DNA from: Thermodesulfobacteriota bacterium
GTDB taxonomy: Bacteria; Desulfobacterota_D; UBA1144; Nemesobacterales; JAJCZQ01
Assembly (NCBI GenBank): GCA_965215275.1
Contig: OZ244044.1
Span: forward strand, 160,001 to 224,000
Direction: 5' to 3'
Length of the DNA: 64,000 nt
Shown here: positions 37,987-46,372 of the stretch, piece by piece
Numbering within the stretch: the first letter of the stretch is position 1
Layout: each line of letters opens with the position of its first letter
Translations under genes and position numbers: made by a program
Notes under the pieces: model-generated
Databases searched by the model: none
Told to the model about the DNA's origin: nothing
What the model saw: only the letters and a program-made list of their open reading frames with translations

Positions 37987-38063
37987 GGACATTTCTCTTC
38001 AGCAATTTTAATCAATAGTGAAAAAAGTAAAAGGTTTATAATGAACGTAATATAGTTATATAA

Positions 38064-39376
38064 GGGAATTATAGTGAATAGTTGACAGGAAGAAAAATTG
38101 AAAACGGGTCAGAAAATGGGTAATATTATAGCATGGTTAGAACGATCACAAGAACTGTAAAGGCAGATAGTGTTTTTCATAAAAGGCTGGATGAATTCTT
38201 ACAACAGCTTACCGACCTGTATAACGGAGCTTTATATCACAGATTAAGATCTTATGACTGGTATGAAAAAACTATCTCTAAATACGAACAGTTTAACGAA
38301 CTAACTGAGGTCCGAGAGCAAGACAAGGAATTTGAAAAGTTTAATGTTGTAGCTCAAAGAAGCGTTCTGGAAAGACTGGATAATGCATATAGTCCTTATT
38401 TGAACTATTTAAAGAATAAAAAAGCAGGAAAGAAGGTGGGCAGACCAAAATACAAAGGTCCAAACAGACCTGTCAGAAGTTTTGAAACAAACAATTATAA
38501 AAACATTGAAAAGATCGGCAGAAGAACGTATTTAACGATAAAGGGACTTGGCAGATTATCTTTCAAAGGTTCTATGCCTGATGGAGTTGTTTTAAAACAA
38601 CCTAAAACAACAATAAGGATAGTTAAAACTGCTATAAGGATAAAGATCCAGTTTCTATGTGAGTTTACCAGCGAAAAGAAAAGACCTATGGACAGGTCCA
38701 TAGGGATCGATCTTGGAATTATAAACAGAATGGCTTTTTCAGATGGAACTAAAATACCAGGAGTTCGGTTGAACAGAAAGGAACTGAAAAGAAAGCAGAG
38801 AATTGTTTCAAGAGCGGTAAAAGGTTCTGACAGCAGAAAGAAGAAAGTTTTATCGTTAGCAAAGGAATGGGAACGAACTACCGATCGTGAAAATAACGCT
38901 ATACACAGAATGACTACCGAAATAGTAAAAAAGAACAATCATATAAAGTTGGAGGATTTAAAGATCCAAAATATGGTAAAAAATCCTTATTTAGCAAGAA
39001 GTGTAACGGAACAGCAATGGGGGAAGATTAAAACCCAACTTGACTACAAAGCCGAGATAGCTGGAGGCAAGTTAGTTTTAGTTAATTCCCATTATACAAC
39101 AATGACCTGTTCTGAATGCGGAAAGGTAAATCCAAAACTGCCTTTGTCTGAAAGAGTATTTAACTGTATATATTGCGGTTATTCAGAAGACAGGGATATA
39201 AATGCAGGTAAAAATATCAATACTCTTAATGAAGGAGACTTCATATCGGGTGGGAATAAGGTAGAAATACTCCCGATGAGTGCTAAGAGTATCAGATCAA
39301 AAGAGAACAGGGATAGAGGAACTCTGCACTCAGAACAGTACGAGTAGTTGTTTGTCAACTATTCACTATAATTCCC
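38064..39376 (+). mobile_element. Non-autonomous TIR element carrying tnpB (IS1595-like ends)
   Basis: Perfect 24-bp TIR GGGAATTATAGTGAATAGTTGACA at 38064-38087 and 39353-39376; flanking 8-mers TTATATAA/TTACATAA (7/8 identical). Confidence 0.85.
38133..39347 (+). CDS. tnpB: RNA-guided endonuclease TnpB family protein
   Basis: RuvC-I GIDLG, RuvC-II LEDL, CSECG..CIYCG zinc finger, RuvC-III DRDINA. Confidence 0.92.
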   Translation: MVRTITRTVKADSVFHKRLDEFLQQLTDLYNGALYHRLRSYDWYEKTISKYEQFNELTEVREQDKEFEKFNVVAQRSVLERLDNAYSPYLNYLKNKKAGKKVGRPKYKGPNRPVRSFETNNYKNIEKIGRRTYLTIKGLGRLSFKGSMPDGVVLKQPKTTIRIVKTAIRIKIQFLCEFTSEKKRPMDRSIGIDLGIINRMAFSDGTKIPGVRLNRKELKRKQRIVSRAVKGSDSRKKKVLSLAKEWERTTDRENNAIHRMTTEIVKKNNHIKLEDLKIQNMVKNPYLARSVTEQQWGKIKTQLDYKAEIAGGKLVLVNSHYTTMTCSECGKVNPKLPLSERVFNCIYCGYSEDRDINAGKNINTLNEGDFISGGNKVEILPMSAKSIRSKENRDRGTLHSEQYE

Positions 39377-39466
39377 TTACATAAGTAATGCCAATGGCAG
39401 AAAAACCATGTAATATATACCTGATTCATTATTGACCAGAATAATGATACATATGATATTAATCCT

Positions 39467-41697: not shown

Positions 41698-42360
41698 TCA
41701 CGGTATTTGTGAACCTAACTGTCCTGTGTCAGCGTCGACCGCTATGCAAGGGTTGCTCGTAGGACTGAAGAAGGACCAAACGCCGGTGCAATCAGCCATA
41801 TTCAAAGCATTTAGCTGTGTTCCATCATCATCCAGTACCGGTATAGGAAGGTTTGCAGAGTCAGATGCTTCTTGTACAAGAACATAAGGACACTTAATAA
41901 TGTCCGCCATTTCCGGGGCATTGGGACGACCTGACCAAAAACCACGCCATTCTTTTTCATTCATATTGTTTTGTACAAGGTTGTATATTCCGGGATTGAT
42001 AAATTCACCAGGGCGGGATTCAACGCTGGTCTGGTAAAACAGCACCATGGAATTTCTTCCAGGATTTCCTTTACTATCTTGCTGATTGGAACCGATGTAT
42101 CCTACTTGTCTAAAATGGTGTCGCCTGCCATTATCGTCAATGAATGTGCTTGTAGCCAGTATGTTGTTTTCGTTAAGCGTTACCTCTTCCATAACTTCAA
42201 AAGCACATATTGGCGTATTATTTGCCCCTAATGTTGTATAATATCCAACCCACTCCACTGGGGCTGGAGAACTGTCCTTACTATCACATGCGAATATAGT
42301 TGCTCCAGCAAGTAGAATTCCTGCAAATACTGAACTAATCTTTTTGTAATGTCGTAAAAT
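41698..42360 (-). CDS. Hypothetical lipoprotein with probable ATT start
   Basis: Frame of the 41698-42258 ORF stays open upstream and encodes LRHYKKISSVFAGILLAGATIFA-C; AGGAGA lies 6 nt before ATT 42360; no in-frame ATG upstream. Confidence 0.6.
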   Translation of the reverse strand: MLRHYKKISSVFAGILLAGATIFACDSKDSSPAPVEWVGYYTTLGANNTPICAFEVMEEVTLNENNILATSTFIDDNGRRHHFRQVGYIGSNQQDSKGNPGRNSMVLFYQTSVESRPGEFINPGIYNLVQNNMNEKEWRGFWSGRPNAPEMADIIKCPYVLVQEASDSANLPIPVLDDDGTQLNALNMADCTGVWSFFSPTSNPCIAVDADTGQLGSQIP

Positions 42361-42417
42361 AATATTTCTCCTGATAGATTTTCTCCAAATTTATTACAGA
42401 GGATCATATTTGTCAAT

Positions 42418-43706
42418 GGGAACTATATACTTAAGTATCCAGTGGATACTAAAAGTTCTCTTTGACGAGTCATAGACCAGTTCCTGTCCCCAACCCCTCT
42501 GCAGTCTCCCCGTCCAATCACCCCTTTCCCTGAGGCTATAATTTGTTTTATTCCAGTTTCCAACTGGTTAAATGCAGCATTTAAGTCAGCATTAACTTCA
42601 TAACCGCAAGATGTACACTTAAATCTGGATTGCGATCTTCTGTTATCAGGAGATCTGTGTCCGCATTCAGAACAGGTTTGACTGGTATATGCAGCTGGAA
42701 CTTCTTCAGTAGCATTACACTTGTAATCCAGCATCCTTTTCATATCAAACCAGCCAGTAGCACGAATGTTCCTGTTCATCTTGCGAAAGTTCTTCCATTT
42801 CTTTCTGGCTGTCATCCCTTGTGTATTAAGTCTCTCAAGTACAGGAACATCATAAAGATCGGAGATCTTTCTTGTAACCTGATGTCTCCAGTCCTTCTGT
42901 CTGTTTGCCAGCTTCCTATGAAGTTTCTGTAACCTTTCCTTAGTAATTCTCCACCTGTTACTTCTCTCTTCCTGACGTGCAAGTTTCTTTTGGTATCTGC
43001 GTATCTTTGCTTCTGTAAGTTCATCATCAGATAACTTAAAAACCTGTCCGTCAGACAGCGTAACCTGTCTTGAATTCCTGTCCATTGCTACAACTCTTAC
43101 TTCTTTCTTTTCCTTTTTAGTTTCATCTATCTCATAGGTAAGGTACGCATACCACTTACCGCATTCCTTCCTTATCCTGCCAGAAAGGAACTTTCCATCA
43201 GGATATGGATTCTTACCTGCCAACCTGAACCATCCAACCTTTAAAATACGGAGCCACTTATTATCTGACAGTTTAGCTGACTGATAATTTACCGGGAATG
43301 AAGGAGTGGTTTTTAATTTACTCTTGAATTTAGGTTGTCCCGATTTTCCATCCCTGTATCTCTTACAGGCATTTGTAAGGTCCAGTAAATAATGCTGAAG
43401 TATGTAAGCAGATGCTTCTTTCAGAAAGTAGTTCTTTTCTTCTTTCTTCAATTCTCTCAAATCGTTACCTAAACTCTCATGACCATAACCATCATTAAAA
43501 TCATTATCCTTTAAATTTCCCACGAATTGATTCCAGATAAACCTGCAACAGCCAGCAGTAGAGGAAAGTTTATGAAACTTCTCCCTGTTGTTTGATCTCA
43601 ACCTCTGCCTTACCGTTCTTATTGTCTTACCTTCTTTCATATTTGTAATTTTACCTTATTCCCTTGCTTTTTTTAAGTAGTTTGGATAGTTAAGTATATA
43701 GTCCCC
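42418..43706 (-). mobile_element. Non-autonomous TIR element carrying tnpB (IS1595-like ends)
   Basis: 24-bp TIRs GGGAACTATATACTTAAGTATCCA (42418-42441) and, on the minus strand, GGGGACTATATACTTAACTATCCA (43683-43706), 22/24 identical; perfect 8-bp TSD TTGTCAAT at 42410-42417 and 43707-43714. Confidence 0.9.
42423..43640 (-). CDS. tnpB: RNA-guided endonuclease TnpB family protein
   Basis: GCCRFIWN, PKFKSK, RuvC-I AMDRN, RuvC-II LERL, TSQTCSECG..FKCTSCG, RuvC-III NADLNAA. Confidence 0.9.
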   Translation of the reverse strand: MKEGKTIRTVRQRLRSNNREKFHKLSSTAGCCRFIWNQFVGNLKDNDFNDGYGHESLGNDLRELKKEEKNYFLKEASAYILQHYLLDLTNACKRYRDGKSGQPKFKSKLKTTPSFPVNYQSAKLSDNKWLRILKVGWFRLAGKNPYPDGKFLSGRIRKECGKWYAYLTYEIDETKKEKKEVRVVAMDRNSRQVTLSDGQVFKLSDDELTEAKIRRYQKKLARQEERSNRWRITKERLQKLHRKLANRQKDWRHQVTRKISDLYDVPVLERLNTQGMTARKKWKNFRKMNRNIRATGWFDMKRMLDYKCNATEEVPAAYTSQTCSECGHRSPDNRRSQSRFKCTSCGYEVNADLNAAFNQLETGIKQIIASGKGVIGRGDCRGVGDRNWSMTRQRELLVSTGYLSI

Positions 43707-43918
43707 TTGTCAATTAAGGGATCTGCCGTATGTTCAATATTCAATCGCAGATGTTTTAATATGAATAACTTGATAAGTTAAGTAATTGTTTTCAGGAGAA
43801 AGAGTTTTTCCGAACACGAGCCTCAAGGACATTACACGGTAACGCACCCGTTCTCCTCAACGAACTTATAAAAGAAAACCAGGTTGTAATTCTATCTTGT
43901 GTTTTGCTGTCAATATTA

Positions 43919-46372
43919 TCAGGTCTTTATCCGAGACCTAATCTTCCTTCTTATCACAACAGATACAGGTATAAGCATCAGCGATGCCACTGCTGTGAGC
44001 ATATCAGGAACGGCTTCGCTCTGACCGGAGACCGCACATCCTCCTCCGCCTGTATCACTACCTGATGACGTTGGTCTTTGTGTCGGTGGTCTTGTTGTTG
44101 GTGGGTCTGTCGGTCCTGGCGGCGTAGTTGTTACCCTGATCGTAAATCTCAGCTCATCCGTATCTCCATCTTCGTCCGTTACCTTATATGTATAACTGCC
44201 AGAAGATACAGCAGTCGGTGTTCCGCTGATAACTCTGTCAGTTTCACTGAAAGCAAGTCCAGCAGGTAAACCAGTAGCAGGTAAAAGAGGGGACAGGCTG
44301 TAGGTCAGTTCTCCATTCCCTGCTGTTGCCTCAGGCAGTGTTTCTTTTATTGCAGTTCCCGGCACGTAATTCTTATCTGGTATGGTCCAGTTGTTAAACG
44401 TCGGCGTGTCCCCAGACATATGACCATAGACCTTTATGTTCCATGAGTGTAAGGTCCCCGTACCTGCAATTGAATTGTTAGTTATCTTCAAGGTCCACTC
44501 TCCAGCAGGGTCCGTTCCTAAGTGATTGGCTAAACCAAAACGATGTTCCCTGCCTGTGTACTTAAAGTCGTCTACAGTAAGAGATCCGTCAGATAAATGT
44601 GATAACGCTTCTGATGCATATTCCTCAGTGAGTTTTGACACGGTAGTATCGTCAGGAGAAGTTATTTCTATATCTAAAAAAGGAAAGAAAGGATGGGTAA
44701 AATTGATACCTATCTCTATAAATTCCGTAAATACCTCAGTGTCTGGTATATCTATATCAGGTACTGTCAGTGTGAAAACAACTGAAACGTCTTCTGCGTT
44801 TTCCCCCGTTGTGAAGTCTGGTATAACCGTATTGATATTACCCGAGGAAACCGTCACGGGTTTCATTTGCGGTGGAACGTTGGTCCAGCTTTCTGCAAGT
44901 TCCACTGCAGCTGCAGCGTCTACTGTGCCAAAAGTATCTACTGTGCCAAAACCGAACTTTGGATTGTAAAAATAATACTCTGAATCAGAACCGTATTGAA
45001 GTGCTACTCTCTTCCATTCTTGGGTATCACCGGAACGGGAGCCCTGGCTGGCTGAACCTGCCAAGATCAGTTTCAGGTCTCGCCAGCTAAGATCACTGTT
45101 TACCTCTCTCATCAGTGCTGCAATTCCTGAAACGACCGCTGCTGAATTTGACGTTCCAGGGAACTCAAAAGTATAACCGTCGTTATTGTCGGTAGTTACA
45201 ATACCGGAACCCGGTGCACATACCCATAGATTGTATCCCTCTTCTGAAAAGGAACTCTTAGTAACAGCGAGCGCATCCCTATCGATCTCTGATGAACATA
45301 CGGTAGTTACTGCGTAGTAGTTGGAATACTCATCAAAATTAGCCTGGTCTGATCCTTCATGTCCGTCCCCTGCCGCCCATACGTAAAACACCCCTTTACC
45401 ACCAAATCCTTCTCTTATACCCGTTCTCACCCCTTCTTCCCACTCTGATGAAGCCTCTGTAAGAACGGGAAGGTCCTTCGGTCCCCAGTTGTTGACCGAT
45501 ACAGCAGTTATATCCTTATTACGGACCATGGCGTCCTTTGCATTAGCATCACTGAAGTTACCAGCTAAATTATAACTGTAGATGTTTGCCTCAGGTGCTA
45601 CACCTCTTACTCCAAGGCTGTTATCACCCACTGCTGCTATAATGCCAGCTACACGTGTTCCACGACCACTGAAAGGACTGTACAGATCACCATTCCCAGA
45701 GTAATCATGAGAAAGTGTGGTATCTACATTGTCAGCAAGGTCCTCATGGTCTGTGTCCATACCATGATCTACCACCGCTACGTTAATCCCAGCACCAAAT
45801 ACGGCATCATCCCAGACATCTTCTATGTTTATGTCTATATCTTGTCTGGCGGAGGTTTGGAATACCTTATCGCCACCTAATATTACATCAACCGCTGGAG
45901 ATTCCAGATACCACTGACAGCCGTATAAGGGATCATTTGGAAAATTGGTAGTAATAATTGAACAGGTTTCAAAGAGTTGATTAGAATCAGCTAATTGAAC
46001 TTGAACTCGATAGGATGTAGCACCACTGCTTCCTACAACGATATAGTACGTTCCCCGTCTGAGGTGAGTTTGTATAGATATATTTCCTAGTAGCCTTTCA
46101 TCACTTGGGTCCACTACTTCAGTAGTACTTGCTATCAGATCATCATTACTGTCACATACCTGTAGGCTGTATTCCTGATCATTGGAGAAGGGGAAGGTTA
46201 CCAATATATCTGCAATAAAATCTCCATTTATGTTTATCTGAAAGTAATGCGGATCAGCACCGGCAGCTAAACTTCCATTGTGTGTTGGTCCTTGCACTCT
46301 CAACGTAGCTTCGGTCGTTGCACTGGAGTCACAGTTGTTAATGCTGGTCTTACCATATGCACTAATGGACAC
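43919..46372 (-). CDS. Surface-anchored kexin/furin-like S8 protein (catalytic His replaced) with N-terminal PPC-like domain, P-domain, one Ig-like repeat and Gly-Cys-TM-basic anchor; true N-terminus lies upstream across a poly-C frameshift
   Basis: DPLYGCQWYL, VAVVDHG, GRGTRVAG, GTSNSA, DLSWRDLKLILA, GTDPAGEWTLKI, GGGGCAVS..LIPVSVVIRRKIR. Confidence 0.85.
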   Translation of the reverse strand: MSISAYGKTSINNCDSSATTEATLRVQGPTHNGSLAAGADPHYFQININGDFIADILVTFPFSNDQEYSLQVCDSNDDLIASTTEVVDPSDERLLGNISIQTHLRRGTYYIVVGSSGATSYRVQVQLADSNQLFETCSIITTNFPNDPLYGCQWYLESPAVDVILGGDKVFQTSARQDIDINIEDVWDDAVFGAGINVAVVDHGMDTDHEDLADNVDTTLSHDYSGNGDLYSPFSGRGTRVAGIIAAVGDNSLGVRGVAPEANIYSYNLAGNFSDANAKDAMVRNKDITAVSVNNWGPKDLPVLTEASSEWEEGVRTGIREGFGGKGVFYVWAAGDGHEGSDQANFDEYSNYYAVTTVCSSEIDRDALAVTKSSFSEEGYNLWVCAPGSGIVTTDNNDGYTFEFPGTSNSAAVVSGIAALMREVNSDLSWRDLKLILAGSASQGSRSGDTQEWKRVALQYGSDSEYYFYNPKFGFGTVDTFGTVDAAAAVELAESWTNVPPQMKPVTVSSGNINTVIPDFTTGENAEDVSVVFTLTVPDIDIPDTEVFTEFIEIGINFTHPFFPFLDIEITSPDDTTVSKLTEEYASEALSHLSDGSLTVDDFKYTGREHRFGLANHLGTDPAGEWTLKITNNSIAGTGTLHSWNIKVYGHMSGDTPTFNNWTIPDKNYVPGTAIKETLPEATAGNGELTYSLSPLLPATGLPAGLAFSETDRVISGTPTAVSSGSYTYKVTDEDGDTDELRFTIRVTTTPPGPTDPPTTRPPTQRPTSSGSDTGGGGCAVSGQSEAVPDMLTAVASLMLIPVSVVIRRKIRSRIKT

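Follow-up and report, generated by a model that had tools for sequence, protein, structure and literature searches.

A tnpB element with IS1595-type ends, a cargo-specific one-sided flank motif and a predicted omegaRNA-like fold that takes in its terminal repeat

The element between aceE and lpdA

The window, the stretch of 64,000 nucleotides analyzed here (Thermodesulfobacteriota bacterium, GCA_965215275.1, contig OZ244044.1), carries in the 153-bp divergent gap between aceE and lpdA an element of 1,313 bp with IS1595-type ends, in which tnpB is the sole long open reading frame and no PF12762 transposase gene is present. aceE and both lpdA genes, named as such in an earlier sequence-only reading of this DNA, each score above their NCBIfam cut-offs. 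The features of the element and its immediate flanks are as follows.

38054..38055, + strand: candidate TAM in the host DNA directly 5' of the left target site duplication (TSD); AG here, with the G kept in the empty allele
38056..38063, + strand: left 8-bp TSD copy, one base off the empty-site sequence
38064..38087, + strand: left terminal inverted repeat (TIR), IS1595-type, with the GGG-R-M-W-WATA start of the genome's transposase-bearing elements
38098..38126, + strand: promoter-like -35/-10 pair, TTGAAA-17-TAATAT, ending 6 nt before the ATG
38133..39347, + strand: tnpB, 404 aa, with RuvC D193/E274/D355 and a C4 zinc finger intact
39353..39376, - strand: right TIR, doubling as the 3' strand of a terminal hairpin and of a predicted pseudoknot
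39377..39384, + strand: right TSD copy and predicted guide seed

The 24-bp TIRs are perfect, 38064-38087 being the exact reverse complement of 39353-39376, and the 8-bp flanks are one base apart (TTATATAA at 38056-38063, TTACATAA at 39377-39384), just as the sequence-only reading had described them. Since the left flank is palindromic, the inverted repeat could alternatively be taken to extend into the flanks, with arms of up to 35 nt, a reading that was ruled out by an empty site in run X6. There, a contig of 5,775 bp joins 38055 to 39377, skips 1321 bases (1313 + 8) and keeps one copy of TTACATAA. Because this empty site skips the element and one 8-bp copy, the flanks are a TSD and the ends proposed earlier, 38064 and 39376, are exact to the base. 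The empty allele carries the right-hand 8-mer, and the left copy therefore most likely mutated from C to T after insertion. The joint was found in one of the four runs compared and was absent from the other three, of which X1 and X5 have contigs that extend across the left junction into the element. In three of the four relatives searched (G001, G002, G003) aceE adjoins lpdA and the element is absent, while G004 gave no match. The insertion is polymorphic between strains.

The encoded protein scores 206 bits against the TnpB model NF040570 (cut-off 100) and falls under the IS200_TnpB cut-off. The three RuvC acidic residues that had been noted as retained (D193, E274, D355) and the four zinc-finger cysteines do not vary in any of the 47 full-length relatives. 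Values of dN/dS of 0.15-0.33 among the 7 full-length family copies of genome G000, with a median of 0.16 in the related genus g10, indicate that tnpB is under purifying selection. The TTGAAA-N17-TAATAT pair was also found where it had been placed, ending 6 nt upstream of the ATG; taken alone it matches 9/12 and lies near chance, with 9 such sites against 5.0 ± 1.9 in shuffled sequence. Across the family, 38 of 47 elements have a -10-like box at a distance of 5-8 nt from the tnpB start, on its upstream side (5.8% at random positions and 12.6% ahead of host long ORFs), and an SD-like 4-mer precedes the tnpB start in none of the 47. This family-wide arrangement supports the leaderless transcript suggested earlier, and the tnpB mRNA is likely leaderless. 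Separately, each TIR closes in a perfect inward-facing TTGACA box (38082-38087 and 39353-39358 in the window), for which a scan found no -10 partner in the window copy and whose equivalent can serve the tnpB promoter in some g10 copies.

IS1595-type ends and two TnpB lineages

In the 1.99-Mb genome G000 we found 28 IS1595 transposase matches, a single weak Y1 match and, at 99.87% completeness, no match to PF00239 (serine recombinase/resolvase). The IS1595 transposase genes are flanked by TIRs with the same terminal motif and by 8-bp AT-rich TSDs. Because its ends and TSD match those of the genome's transposase elements and tnpB is its only gene, the element is, by its sequence, a non-autonomous one with IS1595-type ends, and an IS1595 DDE transposase from another locus likely mobilizes it in trans. 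An IS605/IS1341 identity was rejected, given the TIRs and TSD and a lone Y1 match that lies elsewhere in the genome, as was an IS607 identity, given the TSD and the lack of PF00239 matches. By IS1595 group name and end consensus, the ends are what we take to be ISNwi-like. Known IS1595 non-autonomous derivatives with passenger genes share TIRs of about 24 bp starting GGG and an 8-bp AT-rich TSD; here, by contrast, the passenger is a predicted RNA-guided nuclease whose RNA appears to have co-evolved with the TIR, and the insertion sites are one-sidedly biased.

Eight full copies of the element occupy different sites in G000 at 85-97% identity, one of them frameshifted. The genome holds further tnpB families (B, C, D and E), whose ends are of the type seen in family A. 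Among its transposase genes there are at least 6 TIR types. The nearest transposase-element TIR has 3-6 mismatches in 24 and belongs to a truncated gene of 230 aa, those of the other transposase copies differ at 6-12 of 24 positions, and among the G000 transposase elements no intact transposase with the exact TIR of the element was found.

Several further observations concern these ends. MITE-like elements of 245-446 bp share the TIR type (C1:17470-21955, 1898058-1900957 and 1903208-1903452 in G000), and the pair at C1:17470 and 21955 delimits a composite of 4.5 kb whose 8-bp TSD is perfect. At C1:773673, 1094941, 1695227 and 82022 and at several transposase copies, the two flanks fail to form a matching TSD pair, which suggests rearrangement through recombination between copies. 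The inner TIR occurs in several variants, matched left to right within each G000 family A copy, whereas in many g10 copies the two ends are mosaic; these patterns suggest frequent end exchange and homogenization, compensated in the RNA hairpin.

Relatives of the window protein were found at E <= 1e-35 in 24 of 120 genomes of the phylum, comprising G000, 22 of the 36 genomes of g10 and one other. The g10 proteins of this lineage (lineage A) are about 39% identical to the window TnpB and have the same ends. A second lineage (lineage B), 25% identical to the window protein, is present with IS1595-type ends in 23 of the 36 g10 genomes, and also lies in the window.

42418..43706, - strand: second tnpB element, lineage B, with tnpB at 42423-43640, IS1595-type TIRs and a perfect 8-bp TSD (42410-42417, 43707-43714)

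An intact transposase element at C1:1519071 differs from this second element by 1 mismatch in the TIR, and its transposase is a good candidate helper. The second element is flanked by an ORF of 186 aa with no Pfam match (41698-42258, - strand) and by one of 817 aa (43919-46372, - strand) that looks by eye like a subtilisin-type protease.

In quick trees, other TnpBs separate A and B, and for several of these such ends were not found. An AU test under LG+G4 rejects a single A+B clade at p 0.008, a value to be read with the group having been named after the first tree (post hoc) and with 5 proteins whose ends are unknown or not found. We consider it likely from these trees that IS1595 ends captured TnpB at least twice. 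Ten other g10 TnpB loci (L351-L360) were all without such ends, a metagenome scan gave no relative (593 pattern matches, 0 confirmed), and a scan of genome contigs returned distant TnpBs only, with no convincing TIR and TSD at the 11 of 80 loci checked.

The families C/D/E of G000 (C1:737502, 1094941, 1618027, 1041602, 773673, 1695227 and 82022) encode TnpBs of 463-485 aa with an N-terminal insertion of about 60 aa, and their RNA scaffold is that of family A. One orthologous target can be occupied by different TnpB lineages across species (L139/L341 and L136/L297, and by eye L020/L340), so that such targets are either hot spots or places of cargo replacement between TIRs. Transposase-bearing elements at L190, L213 and L233 sit at one common site, the right flank of which resembles what is presumably a parS palindrome.

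Predicted RNA scaffold and one-sided flank motif

The right end of the element, which overlaps the 3' end of tnpB, is predicted to encode a structured RNA.

39229..39376, + strand: predicted omegaRNA scaffold core over the tnpB 3' end, a conserved, covarying fold
39229-39244, + strand: predicted scaffold hairpin
39245-39277, + strand: predicted scaffold hairpin, with loop GGGAAT at 39252-39257
39342-39350/39356-39364, + strand: predicted terminal hairpin of the scaffold
39252-39257 with 39371-39376, + strand: predicted pseudoknot between the loop and the TIR tip
39377..39396, + strand: predicted guide (TSD and right flank), the first 12 nt of which equal the X6 empty allele

The last 150 nt fold better than shuffled sequence (z -2.9). 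Aligning 40 ends on the four named helices, we found 97.6% of cells paired and a covariation of 0.39 against 0.17 in shuffles (0 of 500), with the reservation that related sequences can beat such shuffles; in slid controls the paired share drops to 33-52%. One more stem has six positions, each of them paired in 37-40 of the 40 ends and two of them showing compensatory changes. The terminal hairpin is more stable with a copy's own TIR (-6.5 against -2.9 kcal/mol; 0 of 10,000 permutations), such that the inner TIR, which varies by copy, pairs best with its own upstream sequence. Rfam gave no match for this RNA end.

Complementarity between a GGGAA loop and the TIR tip is found in lineage A and also, within a different scaffold, in lineage B. 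Pairs 1-4 between loop and tip are kept in 40, 40, 39 and 40 of 40 lineage-A ends and in 26, 25, 27 and 27 of 27 lineage-B ends; of the 40 lineage-A ends, 9 lack pair 5 and 17 lack pair 6. Family C alters both sides of the fifth pair, and several g10 copies break it. Because the four core pairs barely vary, covariation cannot prove the pseudoknot, and we regard the data as consistent with it. Altogether, the right end is predicted to form an omegaRNA-like structure that absorbs the right TIR. With a scaffold ending at the TIR tip, the guide, for which we assumed a length of 16-20 nt from known TnpBs, would start in the TSD, and the TAM would be the base just outside the TSD. The possibility that the TIR itself is the guide was ruled out, the TIR being paired in the fold and the flank motif lying at the edge of the TSD. 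A 2-mismatch match of one guide (C1:1442783) inside tnpB copies concerns one repeated site, and we took it as chance.

The base just outside the TSD is where the flanks of the elements are biased. We counted elements with at most 2 TSD and at most 5 TIR mismatches and dropped repeated sites, which left 31 of 62 g10 loci and 7 of 8 G000 copies for lineage A, and 27 of 58 loci for lineage B. The comparison set of transposase-bearing elements consisted of 35 of 64 g10 loci and 7 from G000, hand-picked for clean TSDs. The 8-bp TSD is perfect in 30 of the 38 counted lineage-A elements. Directly 5' of the left TSD, G was found in 37 of these 38 (30/31 in g10 and 7/7 in G000), preceded by T to give TG in 22. 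At the mirror position on the right side G occurs in only 8 of 38, and the background frequency of G ahead of AT-rich 8-mers is 21%. Among the transposase-bearing elements G stands at -1 in 9 of 42 (Fisher p 4e-13 against lineage A, p values here being overstated by the kinship of the g10 genomes), and among those with a TIR within 3 mismatches of a lineage-A TIR in 3 of 11. Within lineage A, G holds across two large TIR types (13/13 and 16/16). A further insertion seen in run X6 again follows TG, and in the G000 copy left out of the count TG lies one base off register. The lineage-A TSD is variable at all 8 positions and the motif lies 5' of it; position 1 is T in 7 of 7 G000 copies, and this position alone may belong to the TAM and the scaffold.

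Lineage B shows another pattern, with a purine at -1 in 27 of 27 elements (G in only 15), A at -4 in 21 of 27 and A at TSD position 1 in 26 of 27, compared with 11 of 27 on the mirror side. At one orthologous site (L136, L297) an A and a B element are inserted one base apart, each with its own motif. The G motif is not constant over the whole lineage-A clade, because in G000 the base at -1 is A instead of G in all 7 left flanks of this lineage's subfamilies C/D/E (45-51% identical); counted over families B, C, D and E of that genome, A stands at -1 in 10 of 10 left flanks, to which AT-richness contributes. We thus have a controlled comparison of three cargo classes with three flank patterns, and because the ends and the genomes are the same while the patterns of transposase, A and B elements differ, the motif tracks the nuclease cargo rather than the ends, as would be predicted for a TAM.

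Proposed mechanism, known systems and rival explanations

The transposases of IS605 and IS607 set the element beside the TAM, unlike a DDE transposase, for which the 8-bp target is variable. To account for the motif, we consider it rather probable that TnpB cuts empty alleles and that repair copies the element in, with an IS1595 transposase moving it in trans; cleavage, RNA expression and trans-mobilization are here what we infer. The transposase would insert at an AT-rich 8-mer and duplicate it regardless of the neighboring base. A leaderless transcript would then yield TnpB and an omegaRNA, whose scaffold would end at the right TIR tip, closed by the pseudoknot, and whose guide would begin in the right TSD copy, making the variable TSD the guide seed. 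An empty allele would present the TAM (G, mostly TG), the TSD and the right flank and be cut, whereas the filled site would be spared, as its TAM and 8 nt are followed by the TIR, which breaks the match (the filled junction holds at most 8 contiguous bases matching the guide). With the filled copy as repair template, the empty allele would be converted, be it on a sister chromosome, at an excised site or on an incoming allele, and only insertions 3' of a TAM would gain this drive and become common. The register may be off by one base, so that TSD position 1 would belong to the TAM as well as to the scaffold. Some points weigh against this reading: at one or two bases the TAM would be unusually short, the window copy has AG and not the commonest TG, and the odds ratio near 135 demands a strong drive, since transposase-bearing elements persist without any.

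The reason for a cut-and-paste DDE transposon to retain an RNA-guided nuclease is described as unsettled in section 6.2 of a 2026 review (PMC13565253), and the flank patterns provide population-level evidence that TnpB influences where elements end up, with transposase elements unbiased and two TnpB lineages each biased in its own way. Six DDE-associated TnpB branches with inverted ends (DDE-1 to DDE-6), as well as solo TnpBs with matching ends that are moved in trans, have been described (Altae-Tran et al. 2023, PMC10691335), and they resemble our element in having TnpB inside inverted terminal repeats, mobilization in trans and a tnpB 3' end near the element end. By contrast, as far as the available text of PMC10691335 goes, IS1595 appears once, among comparator families listed in the supplement (0 times in the main text), and TAM, TSD and omegaRNA geometry are not given. 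ISL2, IS630 and IS1031 are the DDE partners of TnpB named in the consulted part of the review (PMC13565253), which cites that paper. We found no paper on TnpB in IS1595 ends in the literature searched, which scarcely covers subscription journals. TnpB in DDE shells was known in outline (PMC10691335).

Similarities also extend to OMEGA systems of IS200/IS605 (ISDra2, IS1341-type solo tnpB) and IS607, which share the D-E-D residues and zinc finger, an omegaRNA overlapping the tnpB 3' end, a pseudoknot at the scaffold end, a TAM 5' of the left end and a right-flank guide, the RNA and guide features being predicted for our element. In these systems, however, TnpA picks the TAM-adjacent site; our element instead has the ends and TSD of a DDE family, whose transposase elements lack such a preference. 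IS200/IS605-type and IS607 elements are described as lacking TIRs or TSDs in the review portion at hand (PMC13565253), and the homing model is stated for IS200/605 in the accessible portion of PMC10432273. Fanzor1/Fanzor2* likewise place an RNA-guided nuclease in a non-autonomous TIR element, with the TIR within the RNA scaffold (Yoon et al. 2023, PMC10711439; PMC13565253; both in part). According to the same partial texts, their 3' TSD lies in the scaffold and their 5' TSD in the TAM (PMC13565253; reported or predicted, PMC10711439), and Fanzor1 lost the pseudoknot (PMC10711439, PMC13565253). Compared with the Fanzors as so described, the element has a variable 8-mer TSD that is the predicted guide seed, a motif outside it and a pseudoknot that appears to be kept, such that the problem posed by the TSD would be solved in another way. 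The analysis also yields predicted TAMs and guide registers for two TnpB lineages, and points to TnpBs of about 400 aa with possibly very short TAMs.

An unlikely alternative places the bias at insertion itself, with TnpB-omegaRNA steering the transposase to integrate directly 3' of the TAM. It would fit a bias that is nearly absolute (37/38), lies at a fixed distance and tracks cargo, and under an 8-bp stagger geometry the G would abut the phosphate attacked by the right, omegaRNA-encoding end. The targets in g10, however, are unlike the guides of same-genome copies (TSD similarity within versus between genomes, p 0.10-0.24; p 0.007-0.015 once G000 is added, a signal that the AT-richness of G000 can produce), so that guide-directed choice of new targets is unsupported in g10; moreover, RuvC is kept intact, there is no adaptor gene and many TIR types are used. 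In its boldest form, to which we give the same low credence, TnpB would have been taken up by IS1595 ends two or more times, and its complex would direct a borrowed DDE transposase to integrate immediately behind the TAM. If true, this would be a natural minimal TnpB-assisted cut-and-paste transposon, in which the TIR also serves as scaffold of the guide RNA and the duplicated target as its seed.

We find it quite unlikely that the one-sided base merely reflects a preference of the helper transposase or of subterminal sequence, with TnpB passive or acting elsewhere. Different elements could indeed use different transposases, given the 6 or more TIR types in G000, and a transposase element of G059 has G at -1 in several copies. 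Against this, TIR-matched transposase elements have a low G count, G persists across lineage-A TIR types, lineage B has another motif with similar ends, and purifying selection on tnpB and the RNA fold requires a function.

Finally, the suggestion that the element is kept at this site for an effect on aceE or lpdA expression, first raised by the sequence-only reading from its position in the divergent gap, was not supported and is very improbable, because promoter-like or upstream sites of both genes lie outside the element.

39432..39460, + strand: promoter-like site of lpdA, outside the element; similar boxes by eye in G001 and G002

For aceE, an upstream block common to G001 and G002 lies, by eye, at about 38005-38039. 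No + strand terminator-like site was found, so that tnpB transcripts may read into lpdA, and a hybrid promoter-like site (9/12) across the left junction points to aceE; the latter, however, scores at chance level, and the insertion varies among strains and is one of 8 in unrelated contexts. The aceE/lpdA site looks like one tolerated AT-rich gap among the 8 family insertions.
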